Assembly: GCA_937922155.1 (NCBI GenBank) | Contig: CAKZVL010000049.1 | Span: 9,004 to 73,003, forward strand | Source: an uncultured Rhodobacteraceae bacterium | GTDB taxonomy: Bacteria; Pseudomonadota; Alphaproteobacteria; Rhodobacterales; Rhodobacteraceae | DNA: 64,000 nt | Direction: 5' to 3' | Part shown: positions 4,676 through 61,731 of the stretch, piece by piece | Layout of the letters: every line of letters starts with the position of its first letter | How positions within the stretch are numbered: the stretch's first letter is position 1 | The notes under the pieces: generated by a model | Told to the model about the DNA's origin: nothing | What the model saw: only the letters and a program-made list of their open reading frames with translations | Databases searched by the model: none | Program-made: the position numbers and the translations under genes

Positions 4676-6043
4676 ATGAACCCCCATGAACCCAACAGCT
4701 GGGAAGCCCGCGCAGATGCGCATTCCTTTTACGGTTTCACCGATCTTCCCACGATAAATGACCGCGGCACCATCGTTTTGACCCACGGCAAAGGGCCTTA
4801 CGTCTATGACGTGCATGGCCGCCAATATCTGGATGGAAATTCCGGCCTTTGGAACATGTTTGCAGGCTTTGACCACAAAGGATTGGCTGAGGCCGCAAAA
4901 GCGCAATACGACCGTTTTCCCGGCTATCACGCATTTTTCGGGCGGATGTCAGACCAAACCGTGATGCTGTCGGAAAAACTGGTTGAGGTCTCCCCCTTCG
5001 AGAGGGGGAAAGTCTTCTACACCAACTCCGGATCAGAAGCGAATGACACGATGGTCAAAATGCTCTGGTTCCTCGCCGGCAACGAAGGAAAACCCGCGCG
5101 GCGCAAAATCCTGACCCGCGTCAATGGCTATCACGGGGTGACAGCCGTCAGCGCCTCAATGACGGGCAAGCCTTATAATTCTGTATTTGGCCTGCCGTTG
5201 GACGGCTTTATCCACCTGACCTGCCCACACTATTGGCGCTACGGCACAGATGGCGAGACAGAGGCGGAGTTCACCGCCCGCCTCGCCCAAGAGCTGGAAG
5301 ACACGATCGCAAGCGAAGGGGCCGACACAATAGCTGGCTTTTTTGCCGAACCCGTGATGGGCGCAGGGGGCGTTATCCCCCCGTCTGCGGGGTATTTCGC
5401 CGCCATCCAACCGATCCTGAAAAAACATGGGATCCCCCTCATCGCGGATGAGGTGATCACAGGCTTTGGCCGCACGGGTGAGGTTTGGGGCTGTCAAACC
5501 TATGACTTTATGCCCGACGCAATCATCTCCTCCAAAAACCTCACTGGCGGGTATTTCCCCATGGGCGCGGTCATTCTGGGCCCTGACCTGACCGACCGGA
5601 TGCAAGCCGCCGCCGACGCGATCGAAGAATTCCCACATGGGTTCACTGCGTCCGGCCACCCTGTTGGCTGCGCTGTGGCGCTCAAGGCGATTGATGTGGC
5701 CATGAACGAAGGCCTGATCGAAAATGTGAAAGCCCTGACCCCATTGTTCGAAGAAGGCCTCGCCCGATTGTCGCAAAAAGCCAACATCGGCGAATGGCGC
5801 GGCAAAGGGTTGATGGGCGCGCTAGAGGCGGTGCAGGACAAAGACACCAAACAACCCTTTGATGCATCCCTGTCGGTCAGCGAACGCATTGCCAACGCCT
5901 GCACCGATCAAGGGCTGATCTGCCGCCCGCTGGGACAAGCCATCGTGCTATGTCCTGCGTTCATCCTGACGCCCCTCCAGATGGAGGAGATGTTTGATAA
6001 GTTAGAAACCGCGATTGATGGCGTGTTCGCTGAAGTTGGATAG
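4676..6043 (+). CDS. Class III (omega) aminotransferase, polyamine/beta-alanine:pyruvate transaminase (SpuC)-like
   Basis: 455 aa with the ADEVITGFGRTG motif and typical class III length and architecture. Confidence 0.85.
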   Translation: MNPHEPNSWEARADAHSFYGFTDLPTINDRGTIVLTHGKGPYVYDVHGRQYLDGNSGLWNMFAGFDHKGLAEAAKAQYDRFPGYHAFFGRMSDQTVMLSEKLVEVSPFERGKVFYTNSGSEANDTMVKMLWFLAGNEGKPARRKILTRVNGYHGVTAVSASMTGKPYNSVFGLPLDGFIHLTCPHYWRYGTDGETEAEFTARLAQELEDTIASEGADTIAGFFAEPVMGAGGVIPPSAGYFAAIQPILKKHGIPLIADEVITGFGRTGEVWGCQTYDFMPDAIISSKNLTGGYFPMGAVILGPDLTDRMQAAADAIEEFPHGFTASGHPVGCAVALKAIDVAMNEGLIENVKALTPLFEEGLARLSQKANIGEWRGKGLMGALEAVQDKDTKQPFDASLSVSERIANACTDQGLICRPLGQAIVLCPAFILTPLQMEEMFDKLETAIDGVFAEVG

Positions 6044-10710: not shown

Positions 10711-11015
10711 GCGCAGCCTGCCCAAGGCTGAGGCGAACAGGTCGCACTTTACAGTTGAATACAGGTTTTGCCGTGCCAAGCTGGTCACCGGTTCGCGCAC
10801 AACACCGCCAAATTCCGCACCGCATCGCGACTCAATCCTAAAGAGTGGCCGAGCCCCAAACACACGCCTTTCCAGAAATGACGGGCTATCGGGACTCCAA
10901 CCCCCTGATTTCTTGAGATTCTAAACACTTTCTGAACGGCCTTGACTGTGGCACTATGGCAACTGTTAGACGGTATTCTGTTATTTTTTTGAACGTATTT
11001 TTGTGGAGAAAACTA

Positions 11016-11513
11016 ATGAACTTAAAAAGCCTGCTCATCGCCAGCGTCTTTGTCGGCGCGTCCTCACTGGGGGCGTCTGCTGCGACCATTAATCCGGATG
11101 ACTTTATGTTCGATGGAAAAGTCACGAGCGGCAACTGTCCTTTTGGCGGAAGCACCTGCATCCTTTTACCGAACAATGGCACGGCTGAACTCACCTATAG
11201 CGGTGGTGTTTTTGACCTTGTTAGCTTCGAATATGCCCTGCAAGGTTCGGGTTCCGAGGTGACGGCAACATCCGACTTGGGCGATGTTTTTGTCAGCCAA
11301 CCGCTCCAAGGAAATAATCCAGACAACACGGCTATTGTTAACTGGACTGGGGTAACGACAATCAATTTCGAAAGCACTGGCAACGGCTCCGTGCGCATCG
11401 GTGTTATTGATGGTGTCGTACAGATGACAGCCGTACCGCTGCCAGCTGGCCTGCCGCTGATGCTCGTCGGACTTGGCGCACTTGGTATCGCCAAGCGTCG
11501 CAAGGCGTCCTAA
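11016..11513 (+). CDS. Secreted protein with a VPLPA-CTERM sorting tag
   Basis: Signal peptide MNLKSLLIASVFVGASSLGASA with GGAG upstream of the ATG at 11016. The C-terminus VPLPAGLPLMLVGLGALGIAKRRKAS has the motif, a TM helix and a basic tail. Confidence 0.75.
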   Translation: MNLKSLLIASVFVGASSLGASAATINPDDFMFDGKVTSGNCPFGGSTCILLPNNGTAELTYSGGVFDLVSFEYALQGSGSEVTATSDLGDVFVSQPLQGNNPDNTAIVNWTGVTTINFESTGNGSVRIGVIDGVVQMTAVPLPAGLPLMLVGLGALGIAKRRKAS

Positions 11514-17260: not shown

Positions 17261-18562
17261 ATGATCCCACGTTATTCCCGCCCTGAAATGACTGCCATTT
17301 GGGAGCCGGCCACAAAATTCAAAATCTGGTACGAGATTGAGGCACACGCCTGCGACGCCATGGCCGATCTGGGCGTCATCCCTCGCGAAAATGCCCAAGC
17401 CGTGTGGAAAGCCAAAGACGTCGAATTCGACGTGGCCCGCATTGATGAGATTGAGGCGGTGACAAAACACGACGTCATTGCCTTTCTAACCCACTTGGCC
17501 GAAATTATCGGCAATGATGAGGCCCGTTTCGTCCACCAAGGCATGACATCCTCTGACGTGCTCGACACCACCTTCAACGTCCAACTGACCCGTGCCGCCG
17601 ACATCCTTCTGGCGGATATGGATCGCGTCTTAGCGGCCCTCAAAACCCGCGCGATGGAACATAAAGACACAGTGCGCATCGGCCGCTCCCACGGCATCCA
17701 CGCCGAACCCACAACAATGGGCCTGACCTTCGCGCGGTTCTATGCGGAAATGGATCGCGGCCGTCAGCGCCTTGTGAACGCCCGCGCTGAAATCGCCACT
17801 GGTGCGATCTCCGGCGCGGTTGGCACCTTCGCCAATATCGACCCCGCAGTCGAAGAACACGTTTGCGCCAAAATGGGCCTGACGCCCGAACCGATCAGCA
17901 CGCAAGTGATACCGCGCGACCGCCACGCGATGTTCTTTGCGACCCTCGGCGTCATCGCCTCCTCAATGGAAAACATCGTCACCGAAGTCCGCCATATGCA
18001 GCGCACCGAAGTGTTGGAGGCCGAAGAATTCTTTTCCAAAGGTCAAAAGGGGTCTTCCGCAATGCCCCACAAACGCAACCCGATCCTGACCGAAAACCTG
18101 ACCGGCCTCGCGCGCCTTGTGCGGATGTCCGTCACCCCGGCCCTTGAAAACGTAACCCTCTGGCACGAACGCGATATCTCTCACTCCTCAGTGGAACGCA
18201 CCATCGGGCCAGACACAACCGTGACGCTTAACTTTGCCCTCAACCGCCTTGCCGGAATGCTGGAAAAGCTGGTCGTCTATCCCGACAACATGATGGCAAA
18301 CATGAACAAATTCCGCGGCCTCGTGATGTCCCAACGCGTTCTTCTGGCCCTGACCCAAGCCGGCGTCAGCCGCGAGGACAGCTATAAACTGGTACAACGC
18401 AACGCGATGAAAGTTTGGGAAAAGGGCGCGGATTTTCAAACCGAACTGCTGGCAGATGACGACGTCCGCGCGGCGCTAAGTGCGGATGAAATCAAAGAAA
18501 AATTCGATCTCGGCTACCACACCAAACACGTGGATACGATTTTCAAACGCGTGTTTGGCTAG
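17261..18562 (+). CDS. purB: Adenylosuccinate lyase
   Basis: 433 aa with the fumarate-lyase signature GSSAMPHKRNP. Confidence 0.92.
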   Translation: MIPRYSRPEMTAIWEPATKFKIWYEIEAHACDAMADLGVIPRENAQAVWKAKDVEFDVARIDEIEAVTKHDVIAFLTHLAEIIGNDEARFVHQGMTSSDVLDTTFNVQLTRAADILLADMDRVLAALKTRAMEHKDTVRIGRSHGIHAEPTTMGLTFARFYAEMDRGRQRLVNARAEIATGAISGAVGTFANIDPAVEEHVCAKMGLTPEPISTQVIPRDRHAMFFATLGVIASSMENIVTEVRHMQRTEVLEAEEFFSKGQKGSSAMPHKRNPILTENLTGLARLVRMSVTPALENVTLWHERDISHSSVERTIGPDTTVTLNFALNRLAGMLEKLVVYPDNMMANMNKFRGLVMSQRVLLALTQAGVSREDSYKLVQRNAMKVWEKGADFQTELLADDDVRAALSADEIKEKFDLGYHTKHVDTIFKRVFG

Positions 18563-18648
18563 CAAAATCGACTGCGCCAAGCGACCATAGGTGACATTTG
18601 GCGCAGTTCTGCTAATCTCGCCAGCATAGATAATTGTTGGAGGCGAAG

Positions 18649-18816
18649 ATGACTTTGAAGACAATACTCACCGCAGCCATTCTGCTGCTCACCCCCGGAT
18701 TGGCCGTTGCACAATGCATGGGCGGCTATCACAGCACGCAAACCGCGATGAGCTGTGCAGAGGGCACAATGATGGACGAAGAAACCGGGCGCTGCATCCC
18801 GCTGTCGATCAGCTAG
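18649..18816 (+). CDS. Small secreted Cys-containing peptide (55-aa precursor)
   Basis: A strong SD (GGAGG) lies 6 nt upstream of the ATG at 18649. The signal peptide ends AVA-Q, and the ~32-aa mature part has 3 Cys. Confidence 0.5.
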   Translation: MTLKTILTAAILLLTPGLAVAQCMGGYHSTQTAMSCAEGTMMDEETGRCIPLSIS

Positions 18817-18862
18817 CCCGCCAACACCAATGCGCGCGTGCCTGCGCGGGCGCATTTGATGG

Positions 18863-19471
18863 TTAAATCAATCCGAATTGCGACGCGATTGCAGCGGCTT
18901 GCGTGCTGGTGTTCGCTTCCAGCTTTAACTTCGCATTCTTCAGGCGTTGCTTGACCGCCCCTTCTGAGATGTCAATTTCATGCGCAATCTGTTTCAGCCG
19001 CATACCATCCTTGACCATCCTCAACGCAGACAATTCCGCGTTTGTCAGGTTCGTGGGCGGTGCCGTTTCCTGATGACGTCGCTGAACGAACGCATATAGA
19101 AACTTGGTCTCCAGATCCGTGAATTCCCGGTCAGATCGGGTGAAAATCCCATATGATCGCTGCCCCTGCTGATTCCCGTCAAAATGGGAAACCGCAATGC
19201 CATAACGCAACCCAAACACTTGCGCCTGCTTTAGAACGCCCTTTGGATCATCAAGGGCGAGCTCGCTCCACCGGGTCGTCCCTGTGTGGCTATAAACCCA
19301 TCGAATGACCGGATCGAAAATCATATACCGCTGCTTGGTATAATGACTGACCCACGCGTCTGGAAGGTTGTTAATTTCCTCAACCGGAAAGGCAAAACCA
19401 ACCCGCAAAGCGATATAAAAACCGGCCTGAGCAAATTCAGATATCTCGTCTTCACCGATGTCGGCTAGCAT
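18863..19471 (-). CDS. LuxR-family transcriptional regulator with an autoinducer-binding domain (solo in this window)
   Basis: C-terminal LuxR HTH (LSALRMVKDGMRLKQIAHEIDISEGAVKQRLKNA). The N-terminal W-x3-Y-x8-DP-x13-W spacing is identical to the TraR W57/Y61/D70/P71/W85 pattern. Confidence 0.8.
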   Translation of the reverse strand: MLADIGEDEISEFAQAGFYIALRVGFAFPVEEINNLPDAWVSHYTKQRYMIFDPVIRWVYSHTGTTRWSELALDDPKGVLKQAQVFGLRYGIAVSHFDGNQQGQRSYGIFTRSDREFTDLETKFLYAFVQRRHQETAPPTNLTNAELSALRMVKDGMRLKQIAHEIDISEGAVKQRLKNAKLKLEANTSTQAAAIASQFGLI

Positions 19472-19600
19472 CGTCCACCTTTTCGCGACCTAACTTACTT
19501 ACTAATCGTGGGTTGATATTCCCCAGACTCTAATCGTAGACCATTTTTTGAGACTTGTAATCCACTGAATCTCCACTCTAGCTACAGAACGCAAACAATT

Positions 19601-20092
19601 ATGTCGACGCATCAAGATACCATAATTAACTGCCTGATTAATCTCAAAAATATCGCCCCTGCCGGATTCGTCGTTGGACTGCACATTCAGTTCACAACGT
19701 CGCGTTTCTTGTTCCAGACCTATCCGCGCAGGTGGGTCAAACACTATTCCGAAAACGGCTTGATCGTCTCAGATCCCACGGTTGTCTGGGCGGCCCAAAA
19801 CGAGGGGATCAAATATTGGCACGCGCTGGCAGATCAAGACACCGAAGGTGTGCTCAAGGCCTCAGCGGCACATGGTCTGACCTATGGCGTGACCTGCGCC
19901 CACGCCGATGACACCAGCCGGAGCATGGCAGGCTTTGCCCATGATCAATCAGATTTTGACGCCAAAACCGCGCAATCTCTGCTGGATGCCGTGGCGCTGC
20001 TGCACGACAATACCAAAGATATGCAGAAACTCCCAACCGACCTGATCAGCCAACTGCGCGACGCCGGGATTGATATTCCCGCCGGATCATAA
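19601..20092 (+). CDS. Autoinducer-binding-domain-only protein (LuxR N-terminal domain paralog without an HTH)
   Basis: 163 aa with the same W-x3-Y-x8-DP-x13-W pattern (WVKHYSENGLIVSDPTVVWAAQNEGIKYW). It has no C-terminal HTH and ends 34 nt before fliG. Confidence 0.7.
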   Translation: MSTHQDTIINCLINLKNIAPAGFVVGLHIQFTTSRFLFQTYPRRWVKHYSENGLIVSDPTVVWAAQNEGIKYWHALADQDTEGVLKASAAHGLTYGVTCAHADDTSRSMAGFAHDQSDFDAKTAQSLLDAVALLHDNTKDMQKLPTDLISQLRDAGIDIPAGS

Positions 20093-20126
20093 CCAATCCT
20101 TGAGACATGCCCGCTAGATAGCTCGC

Positions 20127-21194
20127 ATGATCCAAACCAATGATTTCAATGCCACCGTGCCCGCGCAGGGCCCCTGCACGCTCTCCCGACGGCGCAAAGC
20201 CGCCTTGGTTGTCCAAATGATGATCGGCGATGGTGGCAAACTGTCCCTAACGGATTTGCCTGAACACTTGCAGGAACTTCTCGCGCTGGAAATGACCGCG
20301 ATCCGCCTTGTCGATAAGGACACAGTGAACGCCGTCGCCCAAGAATTCTCTAGCCTGCTAGAGGCGATTGGCCTGTCCAGCTCGGGCCGCCCGGATCGCA
20401 CGATTGAAACGATTTCCGAACACGTGTCGCCAAACTTGGTCAACAGGTTGCGCACCCGCTTCGGCCTTGCCGAAGGCGCTGACCCTTGGGCGCGCATCCA
20501 AACCATGGAAGAAACGGAACTCACGTCGATCCTCACCCGCGAAAGCGTTCAGATCGGCGCGGTCGTCCTGTCCAAACTCCCCGTGGAAAAGGCCGCAGCA
20601 TTGCTCGGCGTTCTGCCTGGCGAACGCGCCCGTCGCATCACCATCGCCATGTCAGATAACAAAGACATCGCCCCTACAACCGTCGACAAAATCGGCAAGG
20701 CGCTCTTGGCGGGCAACGGCCCTGACAAAGCGATCGCATTTGAAAAAACGCCCGTCGATCGCCTCGGCGCGATTCTCAACAACAGTACGGCCATGACCCG
20801 CGACGCCCTGCTCACAGAAATCGAAACAGAGGATGAAAAATTCGCCAACGATGTGCGCAAGGCGATCTTTACCTTCGCCGACATCCCCCACCGCGTCACG
20901 CCCACTGACGTCCCCAACATCTTGCGCGCCATCACACCAGAACTGCTGACCGTCGCCATGGCCGCCGCACTGGCCGAAGACACCCCCAACACCGAAGCGG
21001 CAAATTTTATCCTCGACAACATCTCGCAACGCATGGCCCAGGCCATGCGCGAGGAAGCGCAGGAACAAGGGACGATCAAACCCAAACAGGCCGAAGAAGC
21101 GATGAACGGCGTCGCCGCCATCGTCAAAGACCAAGCAGACAACGGCGCCATCACCTTTGTCGTGGACGAAGACGAGGATGACGACGCAGGATAA
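20127..21194 (+). CDS. fliG: Flagellar motor switch protein FliG
   Basis: 355 aa with a FliG-type N-terminal, middle and C-terminal layout (KAALVVQMM, EPWARIQ.., IFTFADI). It carries an acidic tail, DEDEDDDAG. Confidence 0.8.
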   Translation: MIQTNDFNATVPAQGPCTLSRRRKAALVVQMMIGDGGKLSLTDLPEHLQELLALEMTAIRLVDKDTVNAVAQEFSSLLEAIGLSSSGRPDRTIETISEHVSPNLVNRLRTRFGLAEGADPWARIQTMEETELTSILTRESVQIGAVVLSKLPVEKAAALLGVLPGERARRITIAMSDNKDIAPTTVDKIGKALLAGNGPDKAIAFEKTPVDRLGAILNNSTAMTRDALLTEIETEDEKFANDVRKAIFTFADIPHRVTPTDVPNILRAITPELLTVAMAAALAEDTPNTEAANFILDNISQRMAQAMREEAQEQGTIKPKQAEEAMNGVAAIVKDQADNGAITFVVDEDEDDDAG

Positions 21195-21406
21195 ACTCCA
21201 CCACGCTCTTATCCAGACTGGAAAAAGCCGCAGGCGCCGATCTGACAGCCAACCCGTCCCGGCGGAGAGGCTGTCAGACCAGCTTAGCGCTGTCCTCGTA
21301 GATTTTGGCTCACCCCCAGAAACCTTAGATCCAAAATAACATAGCAACCACGCAATAAAACCAACGACGCTTTTCATGTCGGTCCCCGCCCCTTAATAAG
21401 AAAAGC

Positions 21407-46338: not shown

Positions 46339-46404
46339 GAAATATCCTTTGGGTTCAGCGCACCTACATAGTGCGCTTCCACCCAATTCGCCAGAGCGTG
46401 CGTG

Positions 46405-47886
46405 CTATTCGTCGATCTGAGGCAGCACAAAAATCTGCCCCGGATAGATCAGATCAGGATCTCGGATTTGATCACTGTTGGCCTCATAGACCGCCACGAA
46501 CATCACCCCTTGGCCATATTCTTCGCGCGCGATGGCCCAAAGCGTTGCACCGGGTTGCACCGTCCGCACCGCAACCTCAAAATCGTCTTGCGTAGTTTGA
46601 TCGGCCAGCGCGGCGGCGACGGTTTCGGCTTCTTCTCTTTTGAACGGTGTTTCGATGCGCGATACGACCGTTCCCTCGGCGTCCAATTCGTCAATGCGCA
46701 GCGTGTAAATGCCGGTATCAATATCCGGCAAATCGGTGCGCCAATCCCGATCAGCTGTGATGCGAGACGACGTGACAGGTTTGTTGTCGATATAAACCTG
46801 AACAAAACCATCCGTGGAAGCACGCCCCGCCAAAAGAACCTCACCCGCGAGGTCATAGGTGATCGTATCAAGCGCAACCTGCGCAACCTGCGGCCCCGCA
46901 CCAGACACGACTCGCACGCCATCTGCGTCGGCTACGAGGATTGTTGGTGTTTCTTCTTCGTCGCTCTCTTCAACATCGGCTGCCGGGTCAAGCGTGTCGC
47001 CGAAAATATCGGCTATGGCCTCGGTCACTTCGACGGATTCTTCGGTCTTGATGGCTTCTGCCAAATCTGGTGGATCAACAGGTTCGACGACCCTTGGTGT
47101 CGGCGCGGGTTCGGATACCTCTCCGGTGGTTGGCGATGGCTCTGGCTGCGGATTGGGGTCAATCGGATCGATCGGGGGATTGGCTTCCACGACCGCTGGT
47201 TCAGACAGGGCGATCACTTCTTCCTCATCCGCTGGGGTGGGTGGCGCAATCGCCCCGGCGATCACGGGTGCGTCTTCACTCTGCACTTCCGGGGCGGGGT
47301 CCTCTTCGGCAACCTCTGTCGCGCCAAAGGGTTCTATGAAATAGGTTTGCGTCATTCGCACCGCGTCGCCGTCAGGATCCGCGATCACGGTCAAGCTGCG
47401 CGATCGATCGGACGCAGCAAGGTCCAAGAAGGCGACAAAACTGCCAGTGCCGTCCGTGGCAACGCGTTCCACGACCCGCCCTGCGACAACAATATCAACC
47501 GCAGTTCCCGGGGCCGCACGCCCCGCAATTACGGCAAGGCCATCCGCATCAACGCGCAGACTATCAAGCGTCGGCATGATTTGGGGGTCTGGTATCGGCT
47601 CTGGCTCCGGGACGGGTTCAGGTTCAGGTTCAGGTTCAGGTTCAGGTTCAGGTTCAGGTTCAGAAAGCGCTACTATAACCTCTTCAGGTGCGCCAATCGG
47701 TTCTGCGCTTTCCTGCTCTGGCGCGGCCTCCACTATCTCTTTTGTCGTGACGTCTTCATCCAGGAAAACCGCCGCCAACGCGTCAACGTCTTGATCGGGC
47801 TGGAGCACAACAAAGGCACCAACGGCCGCCAAACCTGCCCCAACGGCAAGCGCACCAAGCCCGTATCGCGTTCCAAAATTATTCAT
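46405..47886 (-). CDS. LysM peptidoglycan-binding domain protein with a membrane anchor and acidic Pro-rich linkers
   Basis: C-terminal LysM (VQPGATLWAIAREEYGQG..YPGQIFVLP) and an N-terminal TM helix (LGALAVGAGLAAVGAFVVL). It contains an (EP)8 tract. Confidence 0.75.
   Translation of the reverse strand: MNNFGTRYGLGALAVGAGLAAVGAFVVLQPDQDVDALAAVFLDEDVTTKEIVEAAPEQESAEPIGAPEEVIVALSEPEPEPEPEPEPEPEPVPEPEPIPDPQIMPTLDSLRVDADGLAVIAGRAAPGTAVDIVVAGRVVERVATDGTGSFVAFLDLAASDRSRSLTVIADPDGDAVRMTQTYFIEPFGATEVAEEDPAPEVQSEDAPVIAGAIAPPTPADEEEVIALSEPAVVEANPPIDPIDPNPQPEPSPTTGEVSEPAPTPRVVEPVDPPDLAEAIKTEESVEVTEAIADIFGDTLDPAADVEESDEEETPTILVADADGVRVVSGAGPQVAQVALDTITYDLAGEVLLAGRASTDGFVQVYIDNKPVTSSRITADRDWRTDLPDIDTGIYTLRIDELDAEGTVVSRIETPFKREEAETVAAALADQTTQDDFEVAVRTVQPGATLWAIAREEYGQGVMFVAVYEANSDQIRDPDLIYPGQIFVLPQIDE
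47615..47662 (-). repeat. Perfect hexanucleotide tandem repeat (GGTTCA)8 encoding (EP)8 in the LysM protein
   Basis: I counted eight consecutive GGTTCA units directly. They are in frame. Confidence 0.9.
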
Positions 47887-48002
47887 GGCTTCGTTACCAC
47901 CGCCCAAAATCACACTGCGCCGCGGCTTGTCCCCTGCCCAACGCTTGCGCGACCATATCAACAGCGCTACCCACGGTAAAGCAAGCTATGAGGGCTAAAG
48001 GC

Positions 48003-60605: not shown

Positions 60606-60738
60606 AATTTTGCCCTCCTTTTGCGTTAACTTCGAACTAACACGAACAAGGTAAACTGCAAATCAGCGACCCTTGCGGATGGTGATGTAAACGTTTGGGC
60701 TGCAATGGCTGCCCGTGTTGGGTGAAGAAGGTAGTTTT

Positions 60739-61731
60739 ATGGTCGAAGGCGTGAAATCGCGACAGTCTTTACCGGTTTACCGGTCAAATCATTTCGTCGC
60801 CACCGACGGTGTCGCCGAAGGGGATGGAATTTCGTTCGCTGATGAACTGATCTTGGATGATGTTTATCAATTGCGCCACGCCGCCAAACGCCAGATGCTT
60901 CGCTTGAATGTAGACGGACAAGACGGGTTCAAAATTGCCGGCGGCAGCGCCATTGGAATTCCCGGCAGTATCGTCGTGCTGGATTGCTGCATCACTCTGA
61001 TGGCCACCGATGGAACCACCTTAGAAGCCCTCATTCTGGTGGAGCTGCAGCCAGACGGCGTCGAAGACGTCTATTTCCTGCCTCTGGCAGAGCTTCATGT
61101 GGGGGCCGATTACCGGCTGGTCGGCTTAGACCGGCACGCCGCGACCAAGCGACTGGCAGAAGTGGCTTGTGTATCTTTCAGCCGTGGCACGAACATCACC
61201 ATGGCTTCCGGCCTTCAGGTCCCGATCGAGGATTTGAAAGTTGGCGATATGGTTCTGACCCGCGACGATGGCCCGCAGCCTGTGCGTTGGGTTGGCCAAA
61301 CGACATTGCGCGCAGTTGGCGAATTCGCCCCGGTCATGATCAAAAAAGGAACGCTGCACAACGTTCGCGACCTGATGTTAAGCCCAGATCACCGCATTTT
61401 CGTCTATCAACGCGAGGACAAGCTGGGCGCCGGTCGTAGTGAGGTTTTGATCAAAGTGCGTCACTTGATGGACGGCGAAACCGTTTATCAACAGGACGGC
61501 GGATTTGTTGATTACTTTCAGCTCCTGTTTGATGATCACCAGATTATTTTCGCAGAAGGCATCGCAGCGGAATCCTTGTTAATTGATCCACGGACACGCG
61601 CCGCCATTCCAGATGATGCAGAAGCATCACAAAACGAACATCAACATCGCGTGCATTTGGATTACGAGGTAAAGGAAAACCTGATCCCTCAAAGAGATGC
61701 GGTCGGCCTTTTGCGAAAGGCGTCGTTCTAA
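60739..61731 (+). CDS. Hint (Hedgehog/intein-like, BIL-type) domain protein
   Basis: The C-terminal ~150 aa have a Hint_2-like pattern. It runs from the Cys start CVSFSRGTNITMASG through KVGDMVLTRDDGPQPVRWVG and LSPDHRIF to the end IIFAEGIAAESLL. Confidence 0.75.
   Translation: MVEGVKSRQSLPVYRSNHFVATDGVAEGDGISFADELILDDVYQLRHAAKRQMLRLNVDGQDGFKIAGGSAIGIPGSIVVLDCCITLMATDGTTLEALILVELQPDGVEDVYFLPLAELHVGADYRLVGLDRHAATKRLAEVACVSFSRGTNITMASGLQVPIEDLKVGDMVLTRDDGPQPVRWVGQTTLRAVGEFAPVMIKKGTLHNVRDLMLSPDHRIFVYQREDKLGAGRSEVLIKVRHLMDGETVYQQDGGFVDYFQLLFDDHQIIFAEGIAAESLLIDPRTRAAIPDDAEASQNEHQHRVHLDYEVKENLIPQRDAVGLLRKASF

Follow-up and report, generated by a model that had tools for sequence, protein, structure and literature searches.

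A probable CerM/CerN-type quorum-sensing pair without luxI beside fliG in an uncultured Rhodobacteraceae bacterium

The luxR and receptor genes and their neighbourhood

In a stretch of 64,000 nucleotides (nt) from an uncultured Rhodobacteraceae bacterium (contig CAKZVL010000049.1, positions 9,004 to 73,003), henceforth called the window, three neighbouring genes form the subject of this analysis. The first encodes a short LuxR protein of 202 amino acids (aa; 18863..19471, minus strand), which combines the Pfam domain Autoind_bind with a GerE helix-turn-helix (HTH). The second is divergent from it and encodes a protein of 163 aa (19601..20092, plus strand) that has the Autoind_bind domain only (PF03472, 51.5 bits), while the third is fliG, encoding the flagellar rotor/switch protein of 355 aa (20127..21194, plus strand; Pfam FliG_N, FliG_M, and FliG_C). 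We found these open reading frames (ORFs) at exactly the positions of the original prediction, and the spacing of 34 nt between the stop codon of the receptor gene and fliG was confirmed. The explanation that we consider probable is that the two divergent genes, with their promoter region in between (19472..19600), constitute a quorum-sensing (QS) pair of the CerM/CerN type known from Cereibacter sphaeroides, here without luxI, and that they lie beside a fliG gene which most likely has a CtrA-type promoter of its own.

The family to which the 163-aa receptor belongs was revealed by an exhaustive HMMER search against 1.84 billion representative proteins, which returned 465 matches in total and 219 clusters at E ≤ 1e-10; only 2 proteins had been recovered with the same query by a search based on words. 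Nearly all of the best 150 relatives in the HMMER search have a length of 155-175 aa. Since these relatives are nearly all of about 160 aa, the absence of the HTH is an old trait, conserved in a family that extends across Rhodobacterales, and not the outcome of a local truncation. The profile of the family aligns with the ligand-binding domains of RhlR, SdiA, QscR, LasR, CviR, and TraR, and the AlphaFold (AF2) model of the receptor, computed with 33 homologues as input and having a mean predicted local distance difference test (pLDDT) of 95.6, has its best Foldseek matches in the ligand-binding domains of TraR, RhlR, CviR, and SdiA. The six residues of the TraR pocket for N-acyl homoserine lactones (AHLs), namely W57, Y61, D70, P71, W85, and G113, correspond to W45, Y49, D58, P59, W73, and G96 of the receptor; they are invariant in 23 sequences of the receptor clade and invariant or nearly so across the family. 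The same WYDPWG pocket is invariant also in the clade of the short LuxR proteins, including the 202-aa protein of the window, with the sole exception of C. sphaeroides CerM, which carries the substitution W57F. These features fit a working ligand-binding domain, which in the window too would presumably bind an AHL.

The genomic context of the pair was surveyed by scanning one genome per species, which yielded 66 loci; with two loci from protein look-ups and the window itself, the total is 69 (individual loci are designated below with L numbers). The scan used an alignment of 8 sequences, a version with 50 sequences being too diverse; its single pattern (DPTVxW...) captures the family incompletely and did not pick up Cereibacter. 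A divergent LuxR of about 202 aa lies upstream of the receptor gene in 67 of the 69 loci, window included, and luxI is found behind the short LuxR in 61 of them. The constant partners of the receptor are thus this LuxR and luxI. Where 1.5 kb or more of sequence is available 3' of the receptor gene, which is the case for 63 loci, fliG comes next in only 31, all of them in a purB...lpxL/DUF1223 context. In the loci without fliG, the gene 3' of the receptor is variable and often convergent. Moreover, L043 (Cognatiyoonia sediminum) has kept the order purB-luxI-luxR-receptor-lpxL with fliG gone, and on a Limimaricola plasmid (L072) the two divergent genes occur in the absence of both luxI and fliG. 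From the side of fliG, seven contexts centred on this gene have the QS module (L001, L002, L071, and L076-L079), the synteny of purB, fliG, and lpxL is present without any QS genes in L069 (Salipiger) and L080, and L070 has fliG in a different context. The constant unit is formed by luxI, luxR, and the receptor gene, and fliG is its neighbour in one lineage only, that of Yoonia, Loktanella, Cognatiyoonia, Marivivens, and their relatives, in which the module sits between purB and fliG. The gap separating the receptor gene from fliG spans 20-105 nt in most of the fliG-linked loci. In one Yoonia metagenome-assembled genome (L053, 6001-6605), FliG is reduced to residues ~280-352, apparently by a deletion that also took away the 3' portion of the receptor gene.

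The claim that this arrangement had not been described is wrong. It is listed under the name 'topology D' by Cude and Buchan (2013, PMC3824088); in the part of their survey that deals with it, the hosts of topologies D, D1, and D2 are Loktanella, Oceanicola granulosus, Octadecabacter, and Roseobacter sp. CCS2, fliG is divergent from luxRI, adenylosuccinate lyase lies on the other side, and the corresponding table gives each strain two luxR-like loci with PF03472, plus luxI. The window displays the same neighbourhood, having purB, the LuxR gene, the second PF03472 gene (that of the receptor), and fliG in this order, and differs from topology D in its lack of luxI; full versions of the topology, inclusive of luxI, are present in L001, L002, L071, L076, L078, and L079. 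Within that same part of the survey, the second locus figures as a plain luxR-like gene, without mention of the missing HTH or proposal of a mechanism, and the link between QS and the flagellum is flagged as worth studying (Cude and Buchan 2013, PMC3824088).

Upstream of the receptor gene we have found an element of 17 nt, GCAACC-NN-AAAGCGAGT, that ends 5-11 nt before the start codon in at least 35 loci (for example, L001 7446-7462, L003 5973-5989, and L077 ~1177-1193). It is present with or without a linked fliG and occurs nowhere else in those loci. The element is not palindromic and has no match in Rfam, a search of which with the locus of the window and with L003 gave no match. Three interpretations were rejected: a sigma-54 promoter, in which the GG dinucleotide should be conserved and is not; a Shine-Dalgarno sequence, given that the spacing is variable; and the published CerM site TNT-N5-AAGACA-N2-T, which is out of register. 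Some of the spacers between the LuxR and receptor genes contain a TTGCA-N3-TGCAA palindrome.

Relation to CerM and CerN of Cereibacter sphaeroides

The LuxR protein CerM and its HTH-less companion CerN have been described in C. sphaeroides (Hernandez-Valle et al. 2024, PMC11655674). Deletion of either cerN or cerI in this organism leaves the cells non-motile and CtrA low, and loss of cerM suppresses this phenotype. In pull-down experiments, the binding of CerN to CerM required AHL, and CerN loaded with AHL hinders CerM from binding DNA. The direct targets of CerM are mostly activated, ctrA is repressed by CerM indirectly, and CerN-AHL de-represses ctrA together with the flagellar genes. The double mutant cerI cerN swims partially, a hint that CerN and AHL may also stabilise CerM (Hernandez-Valle et al. 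2024, PMC11655674).

No Cereibacter protein was among the 120 matches listed for a search seeded with the Frigidibacter homologue. CerN was recovered by taking the 20-nt 5' end of its gene from the published cloning primer and scanning it against metagenome contigs, which led to a 3-Mb contig having cerI, cerR, and cerM in one direction and, next to cerM, cerN in the other; the CerN protein thus recovered ends with ATLRH, as the reverse primer predicts. In BLASTP comparisons, the receptor of the window matches CerN with 35% identity (E 1e-32), CerM with E 2e-16, and CerR with E 3e-3, and the 202-aa LuxR matches CerM with 40% identity (E 5e-48). The hidden Markov model (HMM) of the receptor family scores CerN at 170.9 bits, CerM at 109 bits, and CerR at 21.6 bits. 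A neighbor-joining tree rooted on CerR places CerN within the receptor clade and CerM within the clade of the short LuxR proteins. Judging from these comparisons, the 163-aa receptor is the ortholog of CerN, and the divergent 202-aa LuxR is the ortholog of CerM.

Besides belonging to the same two clades, the pairs of the two organisms share the divergent layout, with cerM on the minus and cerN on the plus strand and a spacer of 119 nt in C. sphaeroides versus 129 nt in the window, and have similar sizes (160 and 195 aa for C. sphaeroides CerN and CerM, 163 and 202 aa for the window proteins). In both cases the partners are about 30% identical to each other. CerN of C. sphaeroides retains the WYDPWG pocket, and its system is tied to flagellar motility via CtrA. 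There are differences as well: C. sphaeroides has an extra canonical cerR gene between cerM and cerI and no fliG nearby, whereas the window has no luxI and encodes a LuxR that keeps tryptophan at the position of W57F in CerM. This substitution was proposed to weaken the binding of AHL by CerM, leaving CerN as the main sensor (Hernandez-Valle et al. 2024, PMC11655674).

Two other systems need to be considered for comparison. TrlR/TraS of Agrobacterium tumefaciens is also a ligand-binding domain of the LuxR family devoid of HTH, which poisons its full-length partner in an AHL-dependent manner by forming inactive heterodimers, and the comparison with TrlR has been drawn also by the authors of the CerN study (PMC11655674). 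TrlR, however, is a recent truncation that is 88% identical to TraR, whereas the partners in the window are 29% identical and belong to ancient sister clades distributed across Rhodobacterales. On the basis of this partner identity and of the separate ancient clades, a recent truncated copy of the TrlR/TraS type is ruled out. The other system is VisN/VisR of Sinorhizobium meliloti, which had been proposed as the precedent for a heteromeric LuxR regulator with one HTH-less partner. The general idea of such a regulator was essentially right, the partner being the divergent 202-aa LuxR; the precedent was wrong. VisN/VisR does constitute a LuxR-family pair upstream of flagellar genes in an alphaproteobacterium, but both Vis proteins possess an HTH and they act as a direct master activator, in contrast with the indirect action of CerM/CerN via ctrA. 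The VisR model NF047403 recognises nothing but the HTH of the 202-aa LuxR, with a score of 19.2 bits that stays below its cut-off of 300.

The deletion of luxI in the window is clean, leaving only 46 nt (18817-18862) between a small upstream ORF and the stop codon of luxR. The closest relative, L077, the FliG of which is 83% identical, also has no luxI, and the next closest, L076, has it. Further loci without luxI are L012, L030/L031, L040, L062, L067, and the aforementioned Limimaricola plasmid; luxI characterises the module, not the receptor protein family. With luxI deleted in the window, the AHL sensed by the pair would have to originate from other bacteria or from another locus of the genome. 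Responses to foreign AHLs are common among LuxR solos. Among the window, L077, and L076, moreover, the receptors (19601-20092, 1200-1688, and 5474-5962, respectively) are 46-51% identical, as compared with 81-85% for LuxR, 78-83% for FliG, and 69-81% for LpxL. The CerN-type receptor evolves much faster than its LuxR partner.

fliG and its junction with the receptor gene

The FliG protein of the window aligns end to end with Aquifex FliG (3hjl) and has 409 homologues, the closest named ones being in Cognatiyoonia, Yoonia, and Loktanella. Its acidic tail, which had been considered unusual, is not so, since at least six D/E residues are present among the last 14 in 67 of 120 close homologues. Neither is the isolation of fliG noteworthy, for it is the normal state of this gene in Rhodobacterales with their fla1-type flagellar system. 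Phaeobacter inhibens needs fliG for motility and has the gene at a site remote from its flagellar cluster (PMC12363192); separate coding of FliG and FliM is known also from Dinoroseobacter shibae, in which the separate fliG is induced upon addition of AHL together with the CtrA-dependent flagellar clusters (PMC6473078). The statement that fliG is the sole flagellar gene of the 64 kb is upheld for ORFs of at least 150 aa, among which Pfam scans found no other match to the fli, flg, flh, mot, and che families (ORFs below 150 aa were not scanned); the remaining Pfam-matched ORFs of this size belong to housekeeping and metabolic families only. At residues ~139-142 of FliG, ESVQ stands in place of the middle-domain motif EHPQ, with which the FliG proteins of Thermotoga and Aquifex contact FliM.

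The junction of 34 nt contains two elements that may be relevant to the transcription of fliG. A CtrA-box-like sequence of the form aTAA-N7-TTGA, aTAAccaatccTTGA (20089..20103, plus strand), overlaps the stop codon of the receptor gene, and a -10-like element, GCTAGATA (20113..20120, plus strand), follows it. When the junctions of related loci are aligned, a recurrent order emerges: nTAA-N7-TT[C/G/A]A, then, 9-10 nt on, GCTA[A/G]N and, about 8 nt further on, the ATG of fliG. GCTA is found at the -10-like position also in L002-L006, L010, L020, L021, and L077. No Shine-Dalgarno sequence precedes the fliG ATG in the window, nor is one part of the recurrent architecture. A box with at least 6/8 matches to the consensus precedes fliG in 18 of 33 fliG loci at such a distance that the A of the ATG falls on the 23rd-27th nt following it (mode 24 nt), a spacing that is observed for 0.7% of random sites and at most 4.5% of ORF starts, a set which includes the fliG genes themselves. 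Where the spacing is longer, the box lies at a distance of 42-51 nt upstream of fliG and a Shine-Dalgarno sequence is present in addition. The box stays by fliG despite the insertion of a small ORF and 275-457 nt in L007, L018, L047, and L079, and it precedes fliG also where QS genes are absent, either after purB (L069, L080) or after unrelated genes (L070). All three observations link the box to fliG and not to the receptor gene.

This evidence needs to be considered in relation to the CtrA-activated fla2 promoters of Rhodobacter sphaeroides, which were mapped by rapid amplification of cDNA ends (5'-RACE) and have a TTAA-N7-TTAA-like box near -35 that ends 23-24 nt before the transcription start site (TSS), with an invariant A at -11 (Rivera-Osorio et al. 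2018, PMC6180460). If the same spacing is applied to the window, the TSS would coincide with the A of the fliG ATG (20127) and A20116 would lie at -11, so that a leaderless fliG mRNA is predicted. The two cases diverge in that the fla2 promoters have a mapped TSS and leaders of 12-33 nt, whereas the putative promoter of the window has a box with 6/8 matches, a TSS that is predicted only, and by implication no leader. Both the TSS and the dependence of fliG on CtrA are what we infer from this resemblance, and the most likely reading of the junction is that it contains a CtrA-type promoter proper to fliG. The junction was considered also as a sigma-70 promoter having TTGAGA as its -35 hexamer, an option discarded for its spacer of 9 nt, which is too short.

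On the 3' side of fliG, a strong hairpin is present (21241..21278, plus strand), with a 10-bp stem, tctgacagcc/ggctgtcaga, in the minimum-free-energy fold; it is the likely end of the fliG transcription unit. As originally noted, there is no terminator between the receptor gene and fliG according to a pattern scan of the gap, and the RNA of the junction does not fold more stably than shuffled sequence (z = -1.26), so that no unusual hairpin is present.

A proposed quorum-sensing switch and its alternatives

In functional terms, the above observations raise a question: What could a receptor without HTH do in an organism that has its LuxR partner but no luxI beside it? Orthology, domain content, pocket conservation, synteny statistics, and the conservation of the promoter-like element are established here, and upon them the following switch may be envisaged by analogy with C. 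sphaeroides, from which we extrapolate the binding of AHL, the interaction of the two proteins, and the sign of this interaction. The CerN-type receptor and the CerM-type LuxR would form a two-protein QS switch, in which the receptor loaded with AHL would bind the LuxR and change its binding to DNA, most likely blocking it. As in C. sphaeroides, the indirect repression of ctrA would then be released, and CtrA would switch on the flagellar genes. fliG is on this account one ordinary structural gene of the fla1-type flagellum and does not form a dedicated functional pair with the receptor.

Several points weigh against this explanation, or at least against some of its parts. W57F is private to C. 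sphaeroides, given that the tryptophan is retained in 22 of the 22 other CerM-type proteins sampled; the roles may therefore be divided differently between the two proteins in this organism, and it is even conceivable that regulation has another sign. No LuxI-like sequence occurs anywhere in the 64-kb window. The 17-nt element upstream of the receptor is decayed in the window (19581-19597). Moreover, of 34 highly conserved columns, 5 have a deviating residue in the receptor, the median being 1, and it is possible that some receptor function has been lost or changed in this organism. As to fliG, the CtrA-like box of the window matches only 6/8 consensus positions, the ancestry that the fliG loci share makes the statistics of box enrichment overstate their independence, and a gap of 34 nt with no terminator leaves room for co-transcription with the receptor gene.

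The last point leads to the alternative of a true operon made up of the receptor gene and fliG, in which transcription from a QS-controlled receptor promoter reads into fliG, besides or instead of the fliG promoter, and in this lineage ties the supply of rotor protein directly to AHL sensing. The first strong hairpin is found only 3' of fliG, gaps are short in most fliG-linked loci, and the adjacency is kept across many genera of one lineage; since the junction has no terminator, read-through from the receptor gene may indeed add to fliG expression. The co-transcription that had been proposed is weakened, however, by the linkage in only about half of the family, often with a convergent gene in place of fliG, by the loss of fliG from L043, and by the promoter-like box, which has a fixed spacing to the fliG ATG, is retained across insertions, and precedes fliG without QS genes in L069, L070, and L080. 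We consider a true operon rather unlikely. A composite of the two situations is conceivable for the Yoonia/Loktanella lineage, with the CtrA box of a leaderless fliG overlapping the receptor stop codon and receptor transcripts reading through, so that AHL sensing would reach rotor supply both directly and via CtrA; the fast evolution of the receptor could reflect a shift in its specificity for ligand or partner, which might extend to the detection of foreign AHLs once luxI was lost. This idea is speculative, and we hold it to be quite unlikely.

The sign of the interaction is questioned by another alternative, that of an obligate heteromeric activator similar to VisN/VisR, in which the 202-aa LuxR would depend on the receptor as a co-activator, not have it as an antagonist, and the pair would stand at the head of the flagellar hierarchy. 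It would accommodate the presence of complete AHL pockets in both partners across the family, unlike the case of C. sphaeroides CerM, as well as the activation of most direct CerM targets and the partial swimming of the cerI cerN double mutant (PMC11655674). Yet in the sole ortholog pair that has been tested CerN-AHL antagonises the binding of CerM to DNA (PMC11655674), both VisN and VisR have an HTH, and the VisR model barely recognises the HTH of the 202-aa LuxR; such a co-activator would be very unlikely. One may also wonder whether the pair is a decaying remnant, the regulatory role of which has gone after the loss of luxI. Its deletion in both the window and L077, the decayed 17-nt element, and the 5 deviations of the receptor would be consistent with decay, and receptors from luxI-less loci do tend to have more deviations at conserved columns. 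Nevertheless, the window and L077 have each kept the two ORFs intact despite the absence of luxI, LuxR is 84% identical between these two loci, all pocket residues are kept, and the functional CerN of C. sphaeroides deviates at 8 such columns. Considering also the response of LuxR solos to foreign AHLs mentioned earlier, a remnant seems to us most improbable. Finally, the original prediction had speculated that the 163-aa receptor acts directly on FliG as a small-molecule-responsive factor, following the logic of YcgR or EpsE; it would bind FliG as a brake or clutch. Only gene adjacency in one lineage speaks for this suggestion, and nothing else in our analysis supports it: the receptor is by orthology a CerN protein with CerM as its known partner, and its family is equally common with or without fliG, persists after fliG loss (L043), and is found on plasmids. 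A brake or clutch of the YcgR/EpsE type is rejected also on structural grounds, the receptor having no PilZ or glycosyltransferase domain and a predicted fold that is that of a LuxR ligand-binding domain. Hardly any probability can be assigned to it.

Our favoured explanation, a CerM/CerN-type switch beside a separately promoted fliG, replaces the unsupported story of a ligand sensor acting on the flagellar rotor with homology to a characterised switch. The survey also shows that the CerM/CerN module, known since 2024 from a single species, has a wide distribution among Rhodobacterales, mostly in linkage with luxI but at times as a "solo pair" devoid of luxI or on a plasmid, and that W57F, which has been used to explain the mechanism in C. 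sphaeroides, is not general. The fliG genes of this group, in turn, would have a conserved CtrA-type promoter, predicted to be apparently leaderless. The relevance of these findings lies in how QS drives the swim-or-stick switch of marine roseobacters, and no new kind of system needs to be postulated.

Among the neighbouring genes, purB for adenylosuccinate lyase (433 aa; 17261..18562, plus strand) forms the left flank of the locus and is a marker of topology D, having 81-97% identity to the Lyase_1/ADSL_C gene at the equivalent position in related loci. It is followed by the small ORF mentioned before (18634..18816, plus strand), which encodes a secreted Cys-containing peptide of 60 aa with homologues in related QS loci. 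The genes of this type encode 54-60 aa, comprising a signal peptide and a Cys-containing peptide of ~35 aa with the motif M(S/T)CA(E/D)G..D..TG.C(V/I)P, for which no match was found among Pfam families. Homologues of 54-55 aa are in the equivalent place in L001 (5722-5889), L002 (853-1017), and L076 (3747-3911). The gene accompanies the QS locus in one of two positions, being found either in the interval between purB and luxI or in that between the receptor gene and fliG (L007, L013, L018, L047, L058, and L079, in the last of which it spans 2264-2428). Between fliG and lpxL, a three-gene cluster for nitrile hydratase is present in L001 (9156-10364), L071 (5149-6368), L078 (3571-4851), and L080 (3695-4935), and absent in the window, L002, L076, and L077.

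Elsewhere in the window, one stretch has ORFs of ~520 aa on both strands (46402-47979, plus; 46405-47961, minus) with no real Pfam family, the minus-strand ORF having a sub-threshold, low-complexity match to a PARP repeat only. A protein of 338 aa with a Hint_2 domain is encoded at 60715-61731 (plus strand), and an ORF of 185 aa at 10956-11513 (plus strand) bears a weak C-terminal PEP-CTERM motif.

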